64,000 bases of DNA from Eledone cirrhosa (lineage: Eukaryota), in NCBI GenBank assembly GCA_964016885.1, contig OZ024740.1, positions 226,548,001 to 226,612,000 of the forward strand, in the 5' to 3' direction. The position numbers and the translations under genes were made by a program. Positions 16,667 through 62,799 of the stretch are shown here, piece after piece; the first letter of the stretch is position 1; the number at the start of each line of letters is the position of its first letter. The notes under the pieces were generated by a model. The model was given only the letters and a program-made list of their open reading frames with translations. It searched no databases and was not told the DNA's origin.

Positions 16667-17393
16667 ATATGTACGTCTCTGTGGCTCCTGTTATATAAGT
16701 ATATATGTACGTCTCTGTGGCTCATGTTATATAGGTATATATGTACGTCTCTGTGGCTCATGTTATATAGGTATATATGTACGTCTCTGTGGCTCATGTT
16801 ATATAGGTATATATGTACGTCTCTATGGCTCATGTTATATAGGTATATATGTATGTCTCTGTGGCTCATGTTATATAGGTATATATGTACGTCTCTGTGG
16901 CTCATCTTATATAGGTATATATGTACGTCTCTGTGGCTCATGTTATATAGGTATATATGTACGTCTCTGTGGCGCATGTTATATAGGTATATATGTACGT
17001 CTCTGTGGCTCATGTTATATAGGTATATATGTACGTCTCTGTGGCTCATCTTATATAGGTATATATGTACGTCTCTGTGGCTCATGTTATATAGGTATAT
17101 ATGTACGTCTCTGTGGCTCATGTTATATAGGTATATATGTATGTCTCTGTGGCTCATGTTATATAGGTATATATGTACGTCTCTGTGGCTCATCTTATAT
17201 AGGTATATATGTACGTCTCTGTGGCTCATGTTATATAGGTATATATGTACGTCTCTGTGGCGCATGTTATATAGGTATATATGTACGTCTCTGTGGCTCA
17301 TGTTATATAGGTATATATGTACGTCTCTGTGGCTCATCTTATATAGGTATATATGTACATCTCTGTGGCTCATGTTATATAGGTATATATGTA
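16667..17393. repeat. 36-bp minisatellite, 20 units, with an 8-unit higher-order duplication
   Basis: Unit ATATGTACGTCTCTGTGGCTCATGTTATATAGGTAT. The variant pattern of units 6-11 recurs in units 14-19. Confidence 0.95.
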
Positions 17394-43975: not shown

Positions 43976-44585
43976 TGGTGGCTGCCAACTCGTTTTCGAG
44001 TACGGCCACTACTTTATATCCATGTAGGAGAACCCCTACCGATGCGCTGAACGAGTGTCACTTTTTAGTCCAGCCAGCGACTTGAAAACTCTGGTACAAA
44101 CACTACACTTGTGACAATTATTGACACATAGTGCTGGGCCCATGGTACCATGTGACGACAAGTGCAGAGAGATCTCCAGATATAAAGCAATGCCTGTGCC
44201 GTGAAGCTTTTATAGTGAGCAAAGGCACTGCACAAAGCCAGTCCCACTCTCTTAACCAAGATGATATTTACCAAAAAGAAGAACAAGTCAACATCATTGG
44301 ATACCATCAGAGTTGCAGGTGTTATATCAGAGTTTTCCTTCTCCTAGAATTCTGCCTTGACAAAGGCTAAGGGGTCATCTCTCCCGGTGATATTGGATGG
44401 CCATTGACTCTTAAGAGATCCTTTGCCCTTTGACAGGTTTTGTTTTTAGTCCTGCAGGATGTCCAAAGTCACCCTCCTCACCAAGAAACCTTGGTGGGGT
44501 TGTCAGTTTAGTCGCCAACGACCCGACCATGAGACAGGTTGTACTGGGATACATGTGACCAGTAGCACCAACTGGTGACCTGACA
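43976..44585 (-). mobile_element. Non-autonomous RTE-derived element (LINE 5' UTR plus LINE 3' hairpin, no ORF)
   Basis: Minus strand of 44187-44388 aligns with LINE 50241-50464. Its 3' end TGGCCGTACTCGAAAACGAGTTGGCAGCCACCA(TA)n matches LINE 54341-54373. Confidence 0.85.
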
Positions 44586-45803: not shown

Positions 45804-46097
45804 CATCATCATCATCATTTTACGTCCACGGCAACTGATTCTGGCTTGATTTCTACAGCTGGATGCCCTTCCTAACACCAACCTCATTTACAGTGAGAGC
45901 TGGGTGCTTTTTCTCGTGGCTCCTCCACGACCACTTTGCAATGGAATGATAGGGACCCCAGTCCCTATCATCTCATTTCTACAGCTGAGTAAACTGGAGC
46001 AATGGGAAATAAAATGTCTTGCTCAAGGAAACAAGAATTGAACTCACAACCTTTCGATTGTAAGCCCAATGCTCTAACCACTAAGCTATGTGCCTCC
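45804..46097 (-). mobile_element. SINE family A copy with internal deletions
   Basis: Matches family A. Confidence 0.8.
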
Positions 46098-48840: not shown

Positions 48841-49057
48841 CATCATCATCATCATCATCATCATCATTTTACGTCCGCTTTTCCCTGCTTGCAAGGGTGG
48901 GACGTGTCTTATTCAGCACAGCATCTCTCCACTCGTCACGGTCCCTCGTCATCTCCACCGTGAGCTTCAATGATCTGAGGTCTGTTCTCACCACCTCCGC
49001 CCATGTTTTTCGTGGTCTACCTCTACCACGTCTTCCTTCAACTGGCATTTCCTGGCA

Positions 49058-49059
<2 letters not shown>
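48841..49059 (-). mobile_element. 5'-truncated RTE-type LINE (ORF end plus (ATG)n tail), partner of SINE family A
   Basis: [63 protein letters not shown] followed by (ATG)n. Confidence 0.85.
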
Positions 49060-49103
<44 letters not shown>

Positions 49104-49267
49104 GATATATAGATATATATGTGTATATATATATATATGTATATATATACGTATATATGTGTATGTATATATATACATATATATATGTATATATACATAT
49201 ATATATATGTATATATGTGTGTGTATATATATATATGTATATATATATATATGTATATATGTGAGTG

Positions 49268-49314
<47 letters not shown>

Positions 49315-49916
49315 GTATATATATATACACATACACATACACACACACACATGAAACAAACACACACACACACATTTACATACACACACATATATATCAT
49401 GTTACCTAATTCTTTCCACTAACTTTTCTCCAAGCATTGTCACGCTGCTTTTCTACTAACAGCAGTCTTTACCCATTTATAAACTGTGTCTTGTAAATGT
49501 TTCTATGTATGCGTGTAAGTATACATGCGTGTGCATGTGTAAGTGTGCATGTGTAAGTGTGTGTGTGTGTAAGTGTGTGTGTCGTATTTTAATTTCATCT
49601 TCGTGAATTTGGTAACGTATGTGATGATTGTGTGTTTCTATGTATAGTTGCATGTTTTTCTATGTCTGCGTGTAAATGCATGCCTGCATGTGTGCATGCA
49701 TGCACATACTTTCTCTGAGTATAAGCACGTGCATGGTGTTTAAGTGATGATAACAGCCTGCATGCATGTCTCATTTTGTGCTTATATATATATATATATA
49801 TACAATATATATATATAATATGTGTGTGTGCGTATATGTATACATATATATATATGTATATATATGTATATATATGTATATATATATGTGTGTGTATGTA
49901 TATGTGTATATATGTG

Positions 49917-50190: not shown

Positions 50191-50493
50191 GCGCGGGGAC
50201 ATAGAAATAATCGGGCTGGATGCCCGATCGCGCAGTTAAACCACTGGGAGTGAAGAACCCCTAGCCCATGTCAGGGTATTCTTCTAGGAGAAGGCATCTC
50301 AGGAAACTGGGTTAACTCCGATATAAAACCTGCGGCTCAGTAGTTACCGATGATGTTGATCTTTTCTTCTTTTCGGGTTATAGCTACTGTCGCTCAGAGA
50401 GTGGGATTGGTTCAGTGCACAGTCTTTCCTCACTTTAAAAATATTCGTCACGCACAGGCATTGCACGAGTGCATTAATAATTATTAATAGTGT

Positions 50494-50528
<35 letters not shown>

Positions 50529-50533
50529 TATTA

Positions 50534-50566
<33 letters not shown>

Positions 50567-53500
50567 CCCAATTCAATGATGTTCCAGAACAATGTAAACG
50601 AGATAATTGCCAATTTGGGTTCTGGAACAAAAAAGATCATTGGCAATAAGGGCAGGGGCCCCAAGTTATCACAACCTGGGCCCGCCCGTCATCGTGCCAT
50701 TGTAATAGAGCCAAACAGGGCATTTAGTCTTGGCTGCTGGAACGTACGGACGCTGCTTGACAGGGATTCTTTGGAGCGTCCTGAACGAAGGACCGCTCTT
50801 GTTGCGAAGGAGCTTCGACGTTACGATCTTGACATCGTGGCTTTGTCTGAGACGAGGTTAGCTGGAGATGGTCATCTTACGGAATTTTGTGGAGAATATA
50901 CATTCTTCTGGAAAGGAAGAGATGAAGGAACCAGAAGAGAGGCTGGGGTAGGATTTGCTGTTAAGACTGTACTGGTGAATAAATTGGAAGAATTCCCAGT
51001 GGGGATTAGTGAGCGTCTTATGTCCATGAGAGTTCCGCTGGACAAGGGAAGATATGCTACCCTGGTGAGTGTGTATGCTCCAACTATGAATTCTGTCGAT
51101 GAAGAAAAACTGTCCTTTTACCATGCCTTGAAAGGTGTTTTAAGAAATATCCCTCAGGCAGACAAAGTCATCGTGCTTGGTGACTTTAATGCTAGAGTGG
51201 GTAGGGATTTTAACACATGGAATGTAATCGGAAGGCATGGGGTGGGAAAGTGTAACAGCAATGGTATGCTCTTGCTGCAGATGTGTGAGGAGCTGGATCT
51301 GTGTGTTACCAACACCATGTTCCAACAAAAGAACAAATTCAAGACCACATGGATGCATCCTGCATCTAAGGAATGGCATCTTTTGGACTACGTCCTAGTC
51401 AGGATGCGTGACAGACAGGATGTGCGGTGTGTTCGTGTTCTTCGTGGAGCTGAGTGCTGGACGGACCACCGCCTGGTACGCGCAAAAGTGAATCTAATCA
51501 CCAAACGTAAAATCCGGGCTCCTGGTGTTACCCTGCCCAAAAGATTGAATGCTGCTCGTCTTAAGGATAAAAATGTGAAGAGGACATTGGAAGAAGAGAT
51601 GCAGGCTGCAGATCTTGGTGAGGATTGGCCGACCCTTAAAAAGTCGGTTTATGATGTAGGCAGACGTGTTCTGGGATTGGTGCAGAGAAAACATCAGGAC
51701 TGGTTTAATGAGAAAGATGTGCATATAGATGACTTGTTGGCTGATAAGAGGCGCGCTCTGTCACGCTACTTGACGGCAAGACCACAGGAGAGGAATACGT
51801 TGCATGAGGAGCTCAGGGATGTAAAATCACGTGTTAGGCGGAGTCTTTCTCAGATGAAGGATCAGTGGTGGAGTGAGAAGGCTGGTGAGATACAAACTGC
51901 GTCTGATTGCAATAACACAAAGCTGTTGTACAGTCTCTTGCGTGAGGTTTATGGACCGTCTTCTTCTCTGGTGACACCGATTCGCAGCAGGGATGGCAAA
52001 GAACTTCTTCGTGACTCACAGGGAATTCTACGAAGGTGGCGGGAGCACTTTGATGATCTTTTGAATCAGCCGTCTGTCGTCAGTGAAGATTTCCTCAATC
52101 TCATTCCGGAAAGTCCTGTGAAAGTAGCTCTCGCAGAGCCTCCGACACTTGTGGAGGTTGCAGTGGCTATTTCGAAGCTGAACAGTGGAAGATCTCCAGG
52201 TATGGATGGCATACATGCTGAGCTCCTACAATATGGTGGTGAGAGACTCCTGCAACATCTTCACTCTCTGTTTGGAGGGATATGGGCTAATGAATCCGTG
52301 CCTGAGGACTGGAGAGATGCAGTAATGGTGGTCTTGTACAAGGGAAAGGGTAACAGGAATGATTGTGGGAACTACAGAGGTATATCATTGCTTTCTGTCG
52401 TGGGGAAAGTTTTATGTAGGGTGCTTCTGGACCGTCTGCTGACACACATTGCAGATTGTGTCCTTCCTGAAAGTCAATCTGGTTTTCGTGTTGGACGCGG
52501 CACTACTGATATGATCTTCTCAGCTAGACAGCTCCAGGAGAAGTGCATTGAACAGGGCTTGGATCTGTATCAGGTTTTTGTCGATCTGACAAAGGCTTTC
52601 GATACTGTCAACAGAGATGCATTATGGAAGGTTCTCCAGAAACTTGGTTGCCCTGATAAGTTCCTTGCTTTAGTTAGGTCTTTCCATGACGACATGAAGG
52701 CTTGGGTTAATGTCGGAGGTAACATGTCGGAGCCTATCTCAGTAAAAAATGGAGTGAAACAGGGGGATATTCCAGCACCGACCCTGTTTGCCATATACTT
52801 TGCAATGGTTTTCTGTATTGCATTCAGGAATTGCGAGCATGGTGTTTACATCCGATATCGAACCTCAGGCAGCATATTTAACATCAGGCGCTTTGCTGCG
52901 AAGACAAAAGTATTTACATCAGTCATAAGAGACCTCTTGTATGCAGATGATTGCGATCTTGTAGCGCACACAGAGAGTGATATGCAGCACATTTTGAATG
53001 TATTTTCTGACGCTTGCACTGCCCTGGGTTTGACTGTCAGTCTCAAGAAAACCGTCGTCATGTACCAACCTGCACCTGGTGGGCAGTACACTGAACCAAA
53101 CATCTATGTGTATGGCAAACGACTTGGAGTGGTTGATCAGTTTGTCTACCTGGGAAGCACTGTCAATCGATACGGCAACCTTGACAGTGAAATCTCACTT
53201 AGGATTAGGAAAGCAAGTGATGCTTTCGGAAAGCTAGAAAGGCGACTCTGGGGTCGGCGAGACATATGCAGGAGGACAAAGGTAAAGGTGTACAGGGCAT
53301 GTGTACTCTCTTGTCTTCTTTATGCCTGCGAGACCTGGGTCACATATCGACGCCACCTTAAGCAATTGGAGCGTTTCCATCAGATGTGTCTCAGACGGAT
53401 ACATGGCGTTCGCTGGAGGGACCACATCAGTGATGTCGAGATTTTGGAAAGCTCTATGTGTGACAGTATAGAAGCTCTTGTGCTTAAGCAGCGACTCCGT

Positions 53501-54129
53501 TGGAGTGGTCACCTTGCCAGGATGAAGGATTCTAGAATACCAAAACAACTCTTCTATGGAGAGTTGGTTAAAGGAAAACGACCGCCACATAAACCAAAAA
53601 AGAGGTATAAGGATTCCTTGAAGGCCTCTCTGAAAGACGCTAACATCTCTGCTGATACATGGGAAAATATTGCTGCTGATCGTAATAAATGGAGAAAGAC
53701 TGTATATGAGGGAAAAGTTGCCTTTGAGGCATCTCGAATCGCACACGAGAAAGTAAAGCGGGACGTGAGGAAGGGTATTGCTGTTGCACTTCCAGACGGC
53801 GAGGGTCCTCCTATGTTTCTGACATGCAGCGTCTGTGCGAGACTCTGCCTAAGCAAAGCTGGACTCGAAAGTCATCTTCGCAGTCATAAAGTAAGACCAG
53901 TGGTTGACTACCAGGCTGCAGTTGGAGATGCTACTCATCATGCTTGCCAAACATGTGGTAGAGAATGTAAATCAGCAGGAGGACTCAAGCGACATGCAAA
54001 AGTACACGAACTCCAACCACAGCCGACTATTCCCAGTAAATGTTTTGGTTGCCGACTCTGTGCAAGACATTTTGGATCATTGGCTGGGCTAAAAAGCCAC
54101 ATTCGATCGCAGCACTGTTAGTTGCTATC

Positions 54130-54169
<40 letters not shown>

Positions 54170-54248
54170 GCTTATGTGCGTGCGTGTGTGTGTATATATA
54201 TATGAATATGTATATTATTATTGTTGTTGTCGTTATTATTATTATTGC

Positions 54249-54335
<87 letters not shown>

Positions 54336-54373
54336 TGCAATGGCCATACTCGATAACGAGGGGGCAGCCATCA
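50191..54373 (+). mobile_element. Full-length RTE (BovB-like) non-LTR retrotransposon inserted in a (TA)n-rich tract
   Basis: Structured 5' UTR containing CTAGGAGAAGG, a single intact ORF, and a 3' stem-loop followed by (TA)n. GC content is visibly higher than the flanks. Confidence 0.92.
50576..54121 (+). CDS. RTE LINE polyprotein: APE endonuclease, reverse transcriptase and 3 C2H2 zinc fingers (1181 aa)
   Basis: EN motifs [51 protein letters not shown] motifs [38 protein letters not shown]. Three C-x2-C-x12-H-x3/4-H fingers. No stops or frameshifts. Confidence 0.96.
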
Positions 54374-59531: not shown

Positions 59532-59881
59532 CATCATCATCATCATCATCATCATCATTTTACGTCCGCTTTTCCCTGCTTGCAAGGGTGGGACGGGAAC
59601 TGATTCTGGCTTGATTTCTACAGCTGGATGCCCTTCTTAACACCAACTTCATTTACAGTGAGTGCTGGGTGCTTTTTTTGCCGTGGCACCTCCACGACCA
59701 CTTTGCAGTGGAATGATAGGGACCCCAGTCCCTATCATCTCATTTCTACAGCTGAGTAAACTGGAGCAATGTGAAATAAAGTGTCTTGCTCAAGGAATCA
59801 ACACATCACCCGGTCTGAGAATTGAACTCACAACCTTTCGATTGCAAGGCCAATGCTCTAACCACTAAGCCATGTGCCTCC
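59532..59881 (-). mobile_element. SINE family A, full copy
   Basis: Matches family A end to end. Confidence 0.9.
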
Positions 59882-59902: not shown

Positions 59903-60512
59903 TGGTGGCTGCCAACTCGTTTTCGAGTACGGCCACTACTTTATATCCATCTAGAAGAACCCCTACCGATGCCCTGAACGAGTGTCACTTTTTAGTCCAG
60001 CCAGCGACTTGAAAACTCTGGTACAAACACTACACTTGTGACAATGATTGACACATAGTGCTGGGCCCATGGTACCATGTGACGACATGTGCAGAGAGAT
60101 CTCCAGATATAAAGCAATGCCTGTGCCGTGAAGCTTTTATAGTGAGCAAAGGCACTGCACAAAGCCAGTCCCACTCTCTTAACCAAGATGATATTTACCA
60201 AAAAGAAGAACAAGTCAACATCATTGGATACCATCAGGGTTGCAGGTGTTATATCAGAGTTTTCCTTCTCATAGAATTCTGCCTTGACAAAGGCTAAGGG
60301 GGTCATCTCTCCCGGTGATTTTGGATGGCCATTGACTCTTAAGAGCTCCTTTGCTCTTTGAAAGGTTTTGTTTTTAGTCCTGCAGGATGTCCTAAGTCAC
60401 CCTCCTCACCAAGAAACCTTGGTGGGGTTGCAAGTTTAGTCGCCAACGACCCGACCATGTGACGGGTTGTAATGGGATACATGTTACCAGTAGCACCAAC
60501 TGGTGACCTGAC

Positions 60513-60513
<1 letters not shown>
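59903..60513 (-). mobile_element. Non-autonomous RTE-derived element, second full copy
   Basis: Colinear, high-identity match to 43976-44585 with the same ends, with (TA)n on both sides. A tail-only third copy lies at 60571-60635. Confidence 0.88.
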
Positions 60514-60571
<58 letters not shown>

Positions 60572-60808
60572 GGTGGCTGCCAACTCGTTTTCGAGTATGG
60601 CCACTACTTTATATCCATGTAGGAGAACCTCTACCAATAATTTGTTGAGTGCTTTATATCAGTTATAAAAATATTTGCTTGTTGTATCCCAACAATTTAA
60701 ATAGAACTTCTACATATATATATATATATACGTATATATATAATTACACACACATATATATATGTATATGTCTATATACATATATGTATGTATAAGTATA
60801 TATAATAA

Positions 60809-61155: not shown

Positions 61156-62165
61156 TTAATGATTGGAACCAGTGACCAGCTTGTCCATAGTAGAAAGTCT
61201 GTCATGGTTGAGGAATTCTTTGAGTATCAGGAAGAATCTATTGCTGGCTGTTTTGAGAGTGGTGTGGAGATCATCTGTCCAGCCCAGTGTGTCTGTAGTG
61301 GTCTGGACACTGTCAAACATCTGTAGCATCAAACAGAAGGCATCCATCTTGGCACTGACTCAACTGAGCTGGGTCGGTGGAGTATCAGGCATCCGACACC
61401 AGGGCGCGAGCTCATTGTCGTAGCAACTGTGGAATTGCTCCAGCCTGGCGTTCATGCTAGCAACCATGGTGTCCAGTGATCAACAGGTGTCTGCGACTTC
61501 TTCGCAGGTGTAGCAATTGTAGAGGTACTTATCTTTAATCACTGTCAACTCTTCTAATTCGTCATTCAACTCTTGGACAAGTTTCTTTGCAACATCTTTG
61601 AACTTCTCTATCAGGTCTGTGACTTTGTTCCTTGATATATTTTCTAAATTCTTGTGTTGAGACTTCATGATGCAGACAGCAACATCCCCTGAAGTAAATC
61701 AACCCTAGGAGAGAAAAGTCCGTTTATCACAGTTGGGTGGCTCCCAATCTCCTGGATAAACTGATCTCCCTCTACATACTCCTTGTCCAAATTTGAGGGA
61801 TCATGTTCTCCATGACAGGTTTCTGAAAGTTCCAAAAGAAGGGAGAAGAACTGAAGGTGGTACCTTTTAGTCGCTGTGCCCTTAATAAGGTTGATCCTGT
61901 CTGGTGAACAGAAACCCAGGGAGGACATCAAAGTTAAGAGCTCTTTTAAATAGCTCTCATTATCAAAACGAACCAATTTGTTCATGGTGACCAACATTGA
62001 GGGTTCAATTCTACACAATAGCCATTCAATAACTTTCTTCCTCTCCTCCGATAGTGTCACCAGCTGGCCACAGATCAACTCCTGGTCAACCCCGAAGACA
62101 ATGGAACAGTCCAAGGCCTCTAAATGTTGCCGGAGACTTTCAACTGAATTGAAATAAACCGCCAT
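61156..62165 (-). pseudogene. HAUS7: Processed pseudogene of a HAUS augmin-like complex subunit 7 homologue
   Basis: Three ORF-track pieces join into ~336 codons. LEALDC..SEERKKVIEWLLCRIEP..LGFCSPDRINLIKG..LQFFSLLLE and F..CYDNELAPWC resemble HAUS7 blocks recalled from memory (LKDLNC..SEYRLEILEWMCTRVWP..LCAPDDQELLKG..LHFMDQLLD; FLQVYDDELGECC). There are no introns, one 1-bp frameshift at ~61690, and in-frame TGA stops at 61480-61482 and 61360-61362. Confidence 0.8.
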
Positions 62166-62799
62166 TATACATACAGGTTTTCAAAAATTCAAAAATCCTA
62201 ACCATCCTAAAACTAAAGAGCCCAGCTGAGGGCACAAATAGATTGCTATGGCCATTGCTGGTGGGGGCCCCCACTACAGAGGGCCCAGAGCAATTTCCCC
62301 TTCATCCCCCATTAAATCCAGTCTTGTAGGTGACAGTAAAAGCTGTGCTGGTAATGTTGTTTATTATATATAGTAAGTGAAATGATTATGATGATGGTGG
62401 TGGAGGTGGTGGTGATGGTGGTGATGGTGATGGGGTAGTGATGGTGATGTTAATGGTGGTGGTGGTGGTGGTGGTGACAGCATTGGAAATGAGAAATAAT
62501 CCTGCTGTTATTGTTTTGCCCCAGGTCAACACTGATCCTGCAAACCTATGATCAAAATTGTTCCAATTGTGACCAACCTGTCTTTTTGTATAGAGTGAAC
62601 TATATTGTTAGTATGTCCTTCCATTTTTAATATTGAAAGGTGTGATTTGAGGGAGACCTGGCTTTTATTTCTAGCAGACTAATAGAGGCTCAGTTGATTT
62701 TGCTGTTATGTATGCTGTCATTGCTGGAGGTGGCAGTACCTAATGGTGATGGTGGCGTGATGGTTGTGTTGTGGGAGGTGGTGAGGGTGAGGGTGAGGG

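Follow-up and report, generated by a model that had tools for sequence, protein, structure and literature searches.

The window analysed here, a 64,000-nt stretch of the Eledone cirrhosa genome (GCA_964016885.1, contig OZ024740.1, positions 226,548,001 to 226,612,000), contains a short repeat that resembles both ends of an RTE LINE, which raises the questions of which LINE gave rise to it and how the 5' end of its RNA is set. Two full-length copies of this bipartite element lie on the minus strand, at 43976..44585 (copy 1, 610 nt) and 59903..60513 (copy 2, 611 nt), together with a tail-only, 5'-truncated copy at 60571..60638 on the same strand that covers element nt 543-610. All three had been recognized in the initial annotation and are real, the tail-only copy being slightly longer than given there. 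Copies 1 and 2 are 97% identical (592/610 aligned). The element has no coding capacity and no small-RNA head. As annotated, a tRNA head is absent, since ARAGORN found no tRNA and the A and B box patterns are without a match in the element, and a tRNA-derived SINE (including Ceph-SINE), which would carry such a head, is thereby ruled out. The proposed location of the copies in TA repeats also holds, their flanks being TA/TG repeats. Two tRNA-like SINE heads are present elsewhere on the minus strand (59815-59880 and 46030-46089), one of them immediately beyond the tail of copy 2 on its 3' side.

The window also contains an RTE LINE on the plus strand (50191..54373; family B), a cousin of the element, with an intact 1181-aa ORF at 50576-54121 encoding an endonuclease, a reverse transcriptase (RT) and C2H2 fingers. 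The colinear blocks previously noticed between the minus strand of the element and the 5' UTR of this LINE are confirmed. Element nt 193-399 align with 50238-50464 with 157 of 205 aligned bases identical; the alignment scores 198, and none of 300 dinucleotide shuffles exceeds 55. Every annotated block is also found in copy 2, the first of them with TAT instead of TAG. The likeness of the 3' ends is confirmed as well, with 30/37 identities over the last 37 nt (score 49.5, shuffled maximum 31.5). The blocks belong to a conserved RTE 5'-UTR domain (44187..44393, minus strand) that is common to the window LINE and the element, and the supplement of PMC5786205 contains the TAGGAGAAGG motif of this domain 112 times. 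No part of the window LINE corresponds to element nt 1-192, and the end of an RTE reading frame makes up nt 430-550.

The 3' part encodes a C2H2 finger and a stop codon and therefore pointed to an ORF end. A protein search with the 49-aa frame gave no match. The parent was found by a degenerate RT-motif search with 406 matches from several RTE families, one of which runs into the last 181 nt of the element; a first, wider pattern had been swamped by an unrelated LINE of 25,000 copies. A 3' fragment of an unrelated, very abundant LINE, whose RT motif is matched about 25,000 times, is located at 48869-49375 (minus strand). Parent copies were sampled from 20 further stretches and 16 more chosen by the parent 5'-UTR exit. 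Full-length copies measure 4.0-4.1 kb; their identity to the element is 95-98% over nt 1-432 and 94-98% over nt 430-610, and a single ORF separates the two regions. Thus both parts match one RTE LINE with a single junction, as expected for the annotated bipartite non-autonomous RTE derivative, and there is hardly any doubt that the element is an internal-deletion derivative of this sister RTE family, comprising its first 429 and last 181 bases.

The part from the parent 5' UTR (nt 1-429) occupies 44157..44585 and the ORF-end remnant (nt 430-550), consisting of a linker, the last C2H2 finger and the stop codon, 44036..44156, both on the minus strand. The junction lies just after nt 429 and corresponds to a position about 57 nt upstream of the parent ATG; the same breakpoints are seen in 8 5' and 19 3' parent stretches among those listed. 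A His-x3-His pattern upstream of nt 430 was considered as ORF-derived, which proved wrong, the first His codon being within the 5'-UTR part. In parent searches that excluded the letters of the element at the junction, all of the matches listed (34 of 34, 100 of 379 and 100 of 249) were either indel variants or truncated copies. Both parental breakpoints are found 12-14 nt past a GATCTC hexamer in loosely similar sequence, and this similarity may have guided a template switch.

The element had been thought to be built from the window LINE. This assignment does not hold: the sister family matches both parts mostly at 94-98%, whereas the window LINE reaches only 69-77% in the 5' UTR and 81-85% at the 3' end. 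Nor are the two likely to form the LINE/parasite pair that was proposed, as a closer parent exists and the window LINE has a bipartite derivative of its own, to which it is 90% and 100% identical in the two parts. Parent and window LINE share 68% DNA identity over matched ORF segments and 57% at the protein level. In a tree without named reference elements the three RTE families form separate RT lineages, with the parent on its own branch. Features of the partner that would fit the RTE clade are its single ORF with APE-type endonuclease and RT, together with the RTE 5'-UTR motif. All 24 parent loci inspected are without an intact ORF, the longest open stretch being 863 aa. Divergence from the majority sequence is 1.9-2.3% for the parent and 2.0-2.3% for the element; parent and element are thus equally diverged by about 2% and coeval. 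The parent is most likely the protein donor of the element, a role which sister families may have taken over.

Further bipartite families accompany this one. The derivative of the window LINE (about 530-630 nt; L019, L031, L046, L047, L189-L191, L195) carries a full head that is absent in the window copy, which is therefore recognized as 5'-truncated. Sister families C (L005, L058, L192, L194) and D (L141, L157) have their own tails, and the LINE partner of family C is the RWTGHLCRM family (L135, L156, L158). The head pattern of families B and C has 2,032 exact matches.

In its architecture the element resembles Bov-A, RTESINE1/2, WALLSI3 and RTE-N2_Lch as described in the available text of PMC5786205: a LINE 5' end is joined to the 3' end by one internal deletion, a small-RNA head is absent, and the conserved RTE 5'-UTR domain and a microsatellite tail are present. 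It differs from these derivatives in being longer (610 nt), in keeping the last zinc-finger codons and in outnumbering its parent by about 500 to 1. Unlike the systems described there, three or more sister families made bipartite derivatives in parallel. The bipartite element itself is an ordinary addition to these well-known RTE derivatives (PMC5786205). On the LINE side, the octopus RTE-2_OV (PMC9115989) is similar by description, being an RTE whose one ORF encodes an endonuclease, an RT and a C2H2 finger and whose 3' UTR is rich in microsatellites; the available text of that paper mentions neither a derivative nor a 5' fold. The repeats of the host are generally like those known from octopods.

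Exact genome matches number 10,105 for the first 20-mer of the element and 26,547 for the last, compared with 0 for the controls; these counts are lower bounds, and the small number of parent copies is contained in them. Exact parent 5'-UTR exits amount to 20, about one per 500 element 5' ends. The best 40 full-length matches are 98-100% identical. We then analysed 60 stretches sampled by a 3'-end match and listed first on contig 1. Among the 72 3'-complete copies that they contain, with a mean divergence of 2.0%, 32 extend to nt 1-2, and 5' truncation has shortened the remaining 40. T-purine repeats are found downstream of 62/72 and upstream of 48/72 copies, compared with a background of about 11%. 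Target-primed reverse transcription usually leaves copies that have a fixed 3' end and a repeat tail but are ragged at the 5' end. The high copy number, the 5' truncations and the repeat tail together indicate amplification as a unit by retrotransposition. An apparent cluster of starts at nt 195-202 (6/44) was weak in a less biased sample (4/72 at nt 203-207). Contigs from four sequencing runs span most or all of the element, but such contigs show neither starts nor strand.

At the other end, the tail folds into a terminal hairpin (43978..44009, minus strand) better than shuffled sequences do (z -3.2), and this hairpin is likely recognized by the reverse transcriptase. The initial annotation had described a compensatory stem change between LINE and parasite. 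The A-U versus G-C difference is present, but the contrast was misassigned: parent and element have the same tail, so the change separates two LINE families. The inner 4-bp stem changes from G-C to U-A in family C. For the outer helix the annotated pairing and a closer pairing with the same bases are about equally supported by 8 sequences. The 3' hairpin is indeed conserved, as annotated, and a promoter role of the conserved blocks is a proposal. The most informative cis element, an xrRNA-like fold at the extreme 5' end, had been missed.

This fold comprises element nt 1-58 (44528..44585, minus strand). Class 1a xrRNAs are defined by a 5-bp P1 with CAGG/CCUG, a junction C, a U·A-U triple and a G-C pair to the 5' end, with a P3 of 4-8 bp and a loop (L3-S4) pseudoknot of 3-8 bp (PMC7603331, PMC7749634, PMC13161572, PMC10747610). 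The head can be written with these contacts in register: P1 4-8/47-51, P2 9-12/17-20, an unpaired C21 and P3 22-27/39-44, with the tertiary contacts G2-C45, U3 with A23-U43 and a pseudoknot 31-34/55-58 after a 3-nt linker. The pseudoknot has 4 bp in families A, B and C and is present in 25/30 best-match copies. In copy 2, point changes disrupt one P1 and one P3 pair. Directly 3' of the pseudoknot a putative short P4-like hairpin (44511..44527, minus strand) can be read from the sequence. The likeness to the xrRNAs of Zika, MVEV and dengue viruses (RF01415) thus includes the 5-bp P1 with CAGG/CCUG, the opening C-G of P2, the junction C, the letters of the U·A-U triple, the G-C pair to the 5' end, a 6-bp P3, the loop pseudoknot after a 3-nt linker and a next hairpin. 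Differences are the location at a retrotransposon 5' end and not in a viral 3' UTR, two C-G pairs that are U-A, an AU-richer pseudoknot and an uncertain ring-closing A. With respect to this A (A37-U51 in Zika), a U follows P1 in 7/11 aligned rows, and conservation of an A at the last position of the loop is not seen.

In a scan of the element alone, the Rfam family that matches best is RF01415 (a stem-loop of flaviviruses, equivalent to the class 1a xrRNA) at nt 1-68, with 24.9 bits and an E-value of 0.059, below the gathering cut-off of 54.5; the best score in the genome is 29.6. Three matches at E<=10 were found genome-wide, all of them heads of these RTE families (64 of 216,717 candidates were scored), and matches at E<=10 also occur in 7/14 control genomes. 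On its own the RF01415 score is not significant. The rows listed in an Rfam scan of 18.5 kb were microsatellite noise. Nested folding shows no preference for the junction (z +1.0 to -1.4 in 7 heads), which lies 1-3 kcal above the minimum in the heads of this genome and, similarly, 1-6 kcal above it in 3 viral controls.

To compare the head between organisms we used a search pattern consisting of P1, the junction and the base of P3, with the pseudoknot left out. It matches near the 3' ends of three viral contigs of about 10.8 kb, where a 4-5 bp pseudoknot follows after the same 3-nt linker; we call these contigs flavivirus-like from their length and the position of the match only. In metagenomes the pattern matches at least 120 stretches. 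They comprise ten repeat-like families, two singletons that are virus-like or unknown, one sequence without P2 (L294, excluded from the alignment) and 38 other stretches, most of them GC-rich. Seven of the ten repeat-like families have at least four Watson-Crick pseudoknot pairs at the 3-nt linker, for which chance predicts 3-7% per family; two of the seven (L300 and L328) were inspected only after the alignment had been made. The pseudoknot is found in 0/5 junction-like chance matches among the 38 others. Of the families that fall short, the L249 type is without the pseudoknot, all 3 copies of the L285 type carry an A-G mismatch and the L286 type has three pairs plus wobbles.

In an alignment of 11 family representatives 96% of cells pair, and both partners vary in 9/21 pairs, among them the full set of 4 pseudoknot pairs; P2 and P3 also contain such pairs. 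None of 500 shuffles reaches the covariation of the 11 rows, and slid structures come nowhere close. P1, the G-C pair, the triple and the P3 base are fixed by the search pattern and the 11 rows were chosen for forming P2 and P3, so the pseudoknot provides the only independent test. Based on the contacts and their covariation, nt 1-58 very probably fold as a flavivirus-type class 1a xrRNA knot, and we consider it likely that the head confers exoribonuclease resistance of the Xrn1 type.

Three of the ten metagenome families have an RTE-like ORF downstream on the same strand. On one contig (L286) a long RTE-like ORF is preceded by two tandem xrRNA-like units, as in flavivirus 3' UTRs, the tandem region being the first 350 nt of that element. 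In another organism a SINE-like repeat of about 240 nt (L238 and about 60 related loci) has its 5' boundary precisely where the fold begins, and its 5-bp pseudoknot differs in sequence. At L232:2703-2755 the fold occurs in the same U-A variant, with a second similar unit downstream and a 666-codon open frame upstream, and this contig looks like the 3' region of an RNA virus. A head like that of family B is joined to a different RTE 5' UTR and ORF (50% aa identity to the window LINE) in three copies (L183, L206, L212), which suggests that the head was swapped between RTE families.

A model for the element can build on what is seen directly, namely the two-part anatomy, the parent, the copy numbers, the sharp 5' end, the 5' truncations, the microsatellite flanks and the conserved fold with its compensatory changes. 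The element would be transcribed within a longer host RNA running in from host DNA, and XRN1 or XRN2 would trim this RNA 5'-3' until it meets the knot. At viral xrRNAs the enzyme reportedly stops 2 nt ahead of PK1 or some 5 nt ahead of P1 (PMC7749634, PMC13161572), a position that matches the element boundary. An RTE protein acting in trans would then bind the 3' hairpin, nick a TA/TG microsatellite and reverse transcribe from the 3' side; priming in repeats is in line with the RTE model in PMC6007223. The knot is expected to open easily to a polymerase arriving from that side, as a figure legend in PMC7603331 states for xrRNAs. Taken together, an RNA 5' end set and protected by the knot, joined with derivation from the sister family, is the explanation that we favour with moderate confidence, and that an exonuclease stop sets this end in vivo appears somewhat more probable than the opposite. 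A sharp 5' end would also be expected from an internal promoter.

The latter point leads to an unlikely though serious alternative, in which the head folds as described but serves as a protein-binding module for the RTE protein in second-strand synthesis or RNP assembly, or as an RNA stabiliser, with the start set by an internal Pol II promoter. The avian R2 protein does bind a pseudoknotted RNA (PMC12222951), bipartite LINE derivatives usually retain the LINE 5' end (PMC5786205), and the pseudoknot is weak or absent in some families. However, the conserved letters are those needed for resistance in flaviviruses (CAGG/CCUG, U·A-U, G-C and the junction C; PMC10747610), the fold sits exactly at the element boundary, in agreement with the reported enzyme stops (PMC7749634, PMC13161572), and in one metagenome family 5 clear target duplications, from 5/20 complete copies, end 0-3 nt before the G.

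A 5' end made by a self-cleaving ribozyme, with the xrRNA likeness due to chance, is improbable: no ribozyme family matches the element at E<=10, a hammerhead core is not found in it, and the covarying topology is that of the xrRNA, even though ribozyme 5' ends are known in the RTE clade (PMC5786205; PMC8501958) and in R2 and the Schistosoma element Perere-3. HDV-like and twister folds of the head were tried by hand and did not fit. The knot would nevertheless have much in common with the ribozymes at the 5' end of non-LTR elements, which are HDV-like in R2 and RTE and variants of twister in Perere-3, as in both cases a fold at the exact 5' end would release a defined RNA from a longer transcript; here a host exonuclease would stop at the fold and leave a 5' phosphate, in place of self-cleavage. 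Least probable is a parasite of the window LINE family whose promoter is made up by the shared blocks, because in spite of the significant colinear similarity, an intact ORF, similar 3' hairpin and same target repeats with which the window LINE could mobilise the element in trans, and element copies often lying in the tails of family B copies, a far closer parent is known, the three RTE families are separate RT lineages and the window LINE has its own derivative; descent from the window LINE is refuted by these sequence comparisons.

If the 5' end is set by an exonuclease stop at the knot, consequences for LINE biology would follow. LINE 5' ends are set by promoters or ribozymes (PMC5786205; PMC8501958), and Xrn1 resistance of the head would add a third way of defining them, besides internal promoters and ribozymes, and would explain why RTE derivatives retain the extreme 5' end. 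According to the available text of a 2021 review, characterised xrRNAs had come from viruses alone, and the authors pose the question of whether they also exist in eukaryotic genomes (PMC8374639). No report of an xrRNA in a retrotransposon was found in the literature searched, most subscription papers lying outside it. The words of the xrRNA-like head have no match in the supplement of PMC5786205, and the available parts of two octopus papers (PMC9115989 and PMC13282606) do not mention the element or the fold, although the supplements of PMC9115989 may hold related sequences. The head represents a candidate xrRNA that marks the very start of a retrotransposon in over 10,000 copies and is conserved, through compensatory changes, in the repeats of other organisms. 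It also brings up a possible exchange between RNA viruses and retroelements. In a broader reading, to which we give an even chance, a lineage of animal RTE elements and its short parasites would use a true class 1a xrRNA as a portable 5' module, at which host exonucleases trim read-through transcripts to unit-length RNA, so that neither promoter nor ribozyme is needed. The module would move between LINE families, sometimes be present as tandem units and have a common origin with the viral fold.

Two further features of the window are distinct from these elements. A non-repetitive open frame of 171 codons at 61665-62180 (minus strand) is possibly a host exon or a processed gene fragment, and a minisatellite at 16667-17393 consists of 20 copies of a 36-nt unit with 96% matches.
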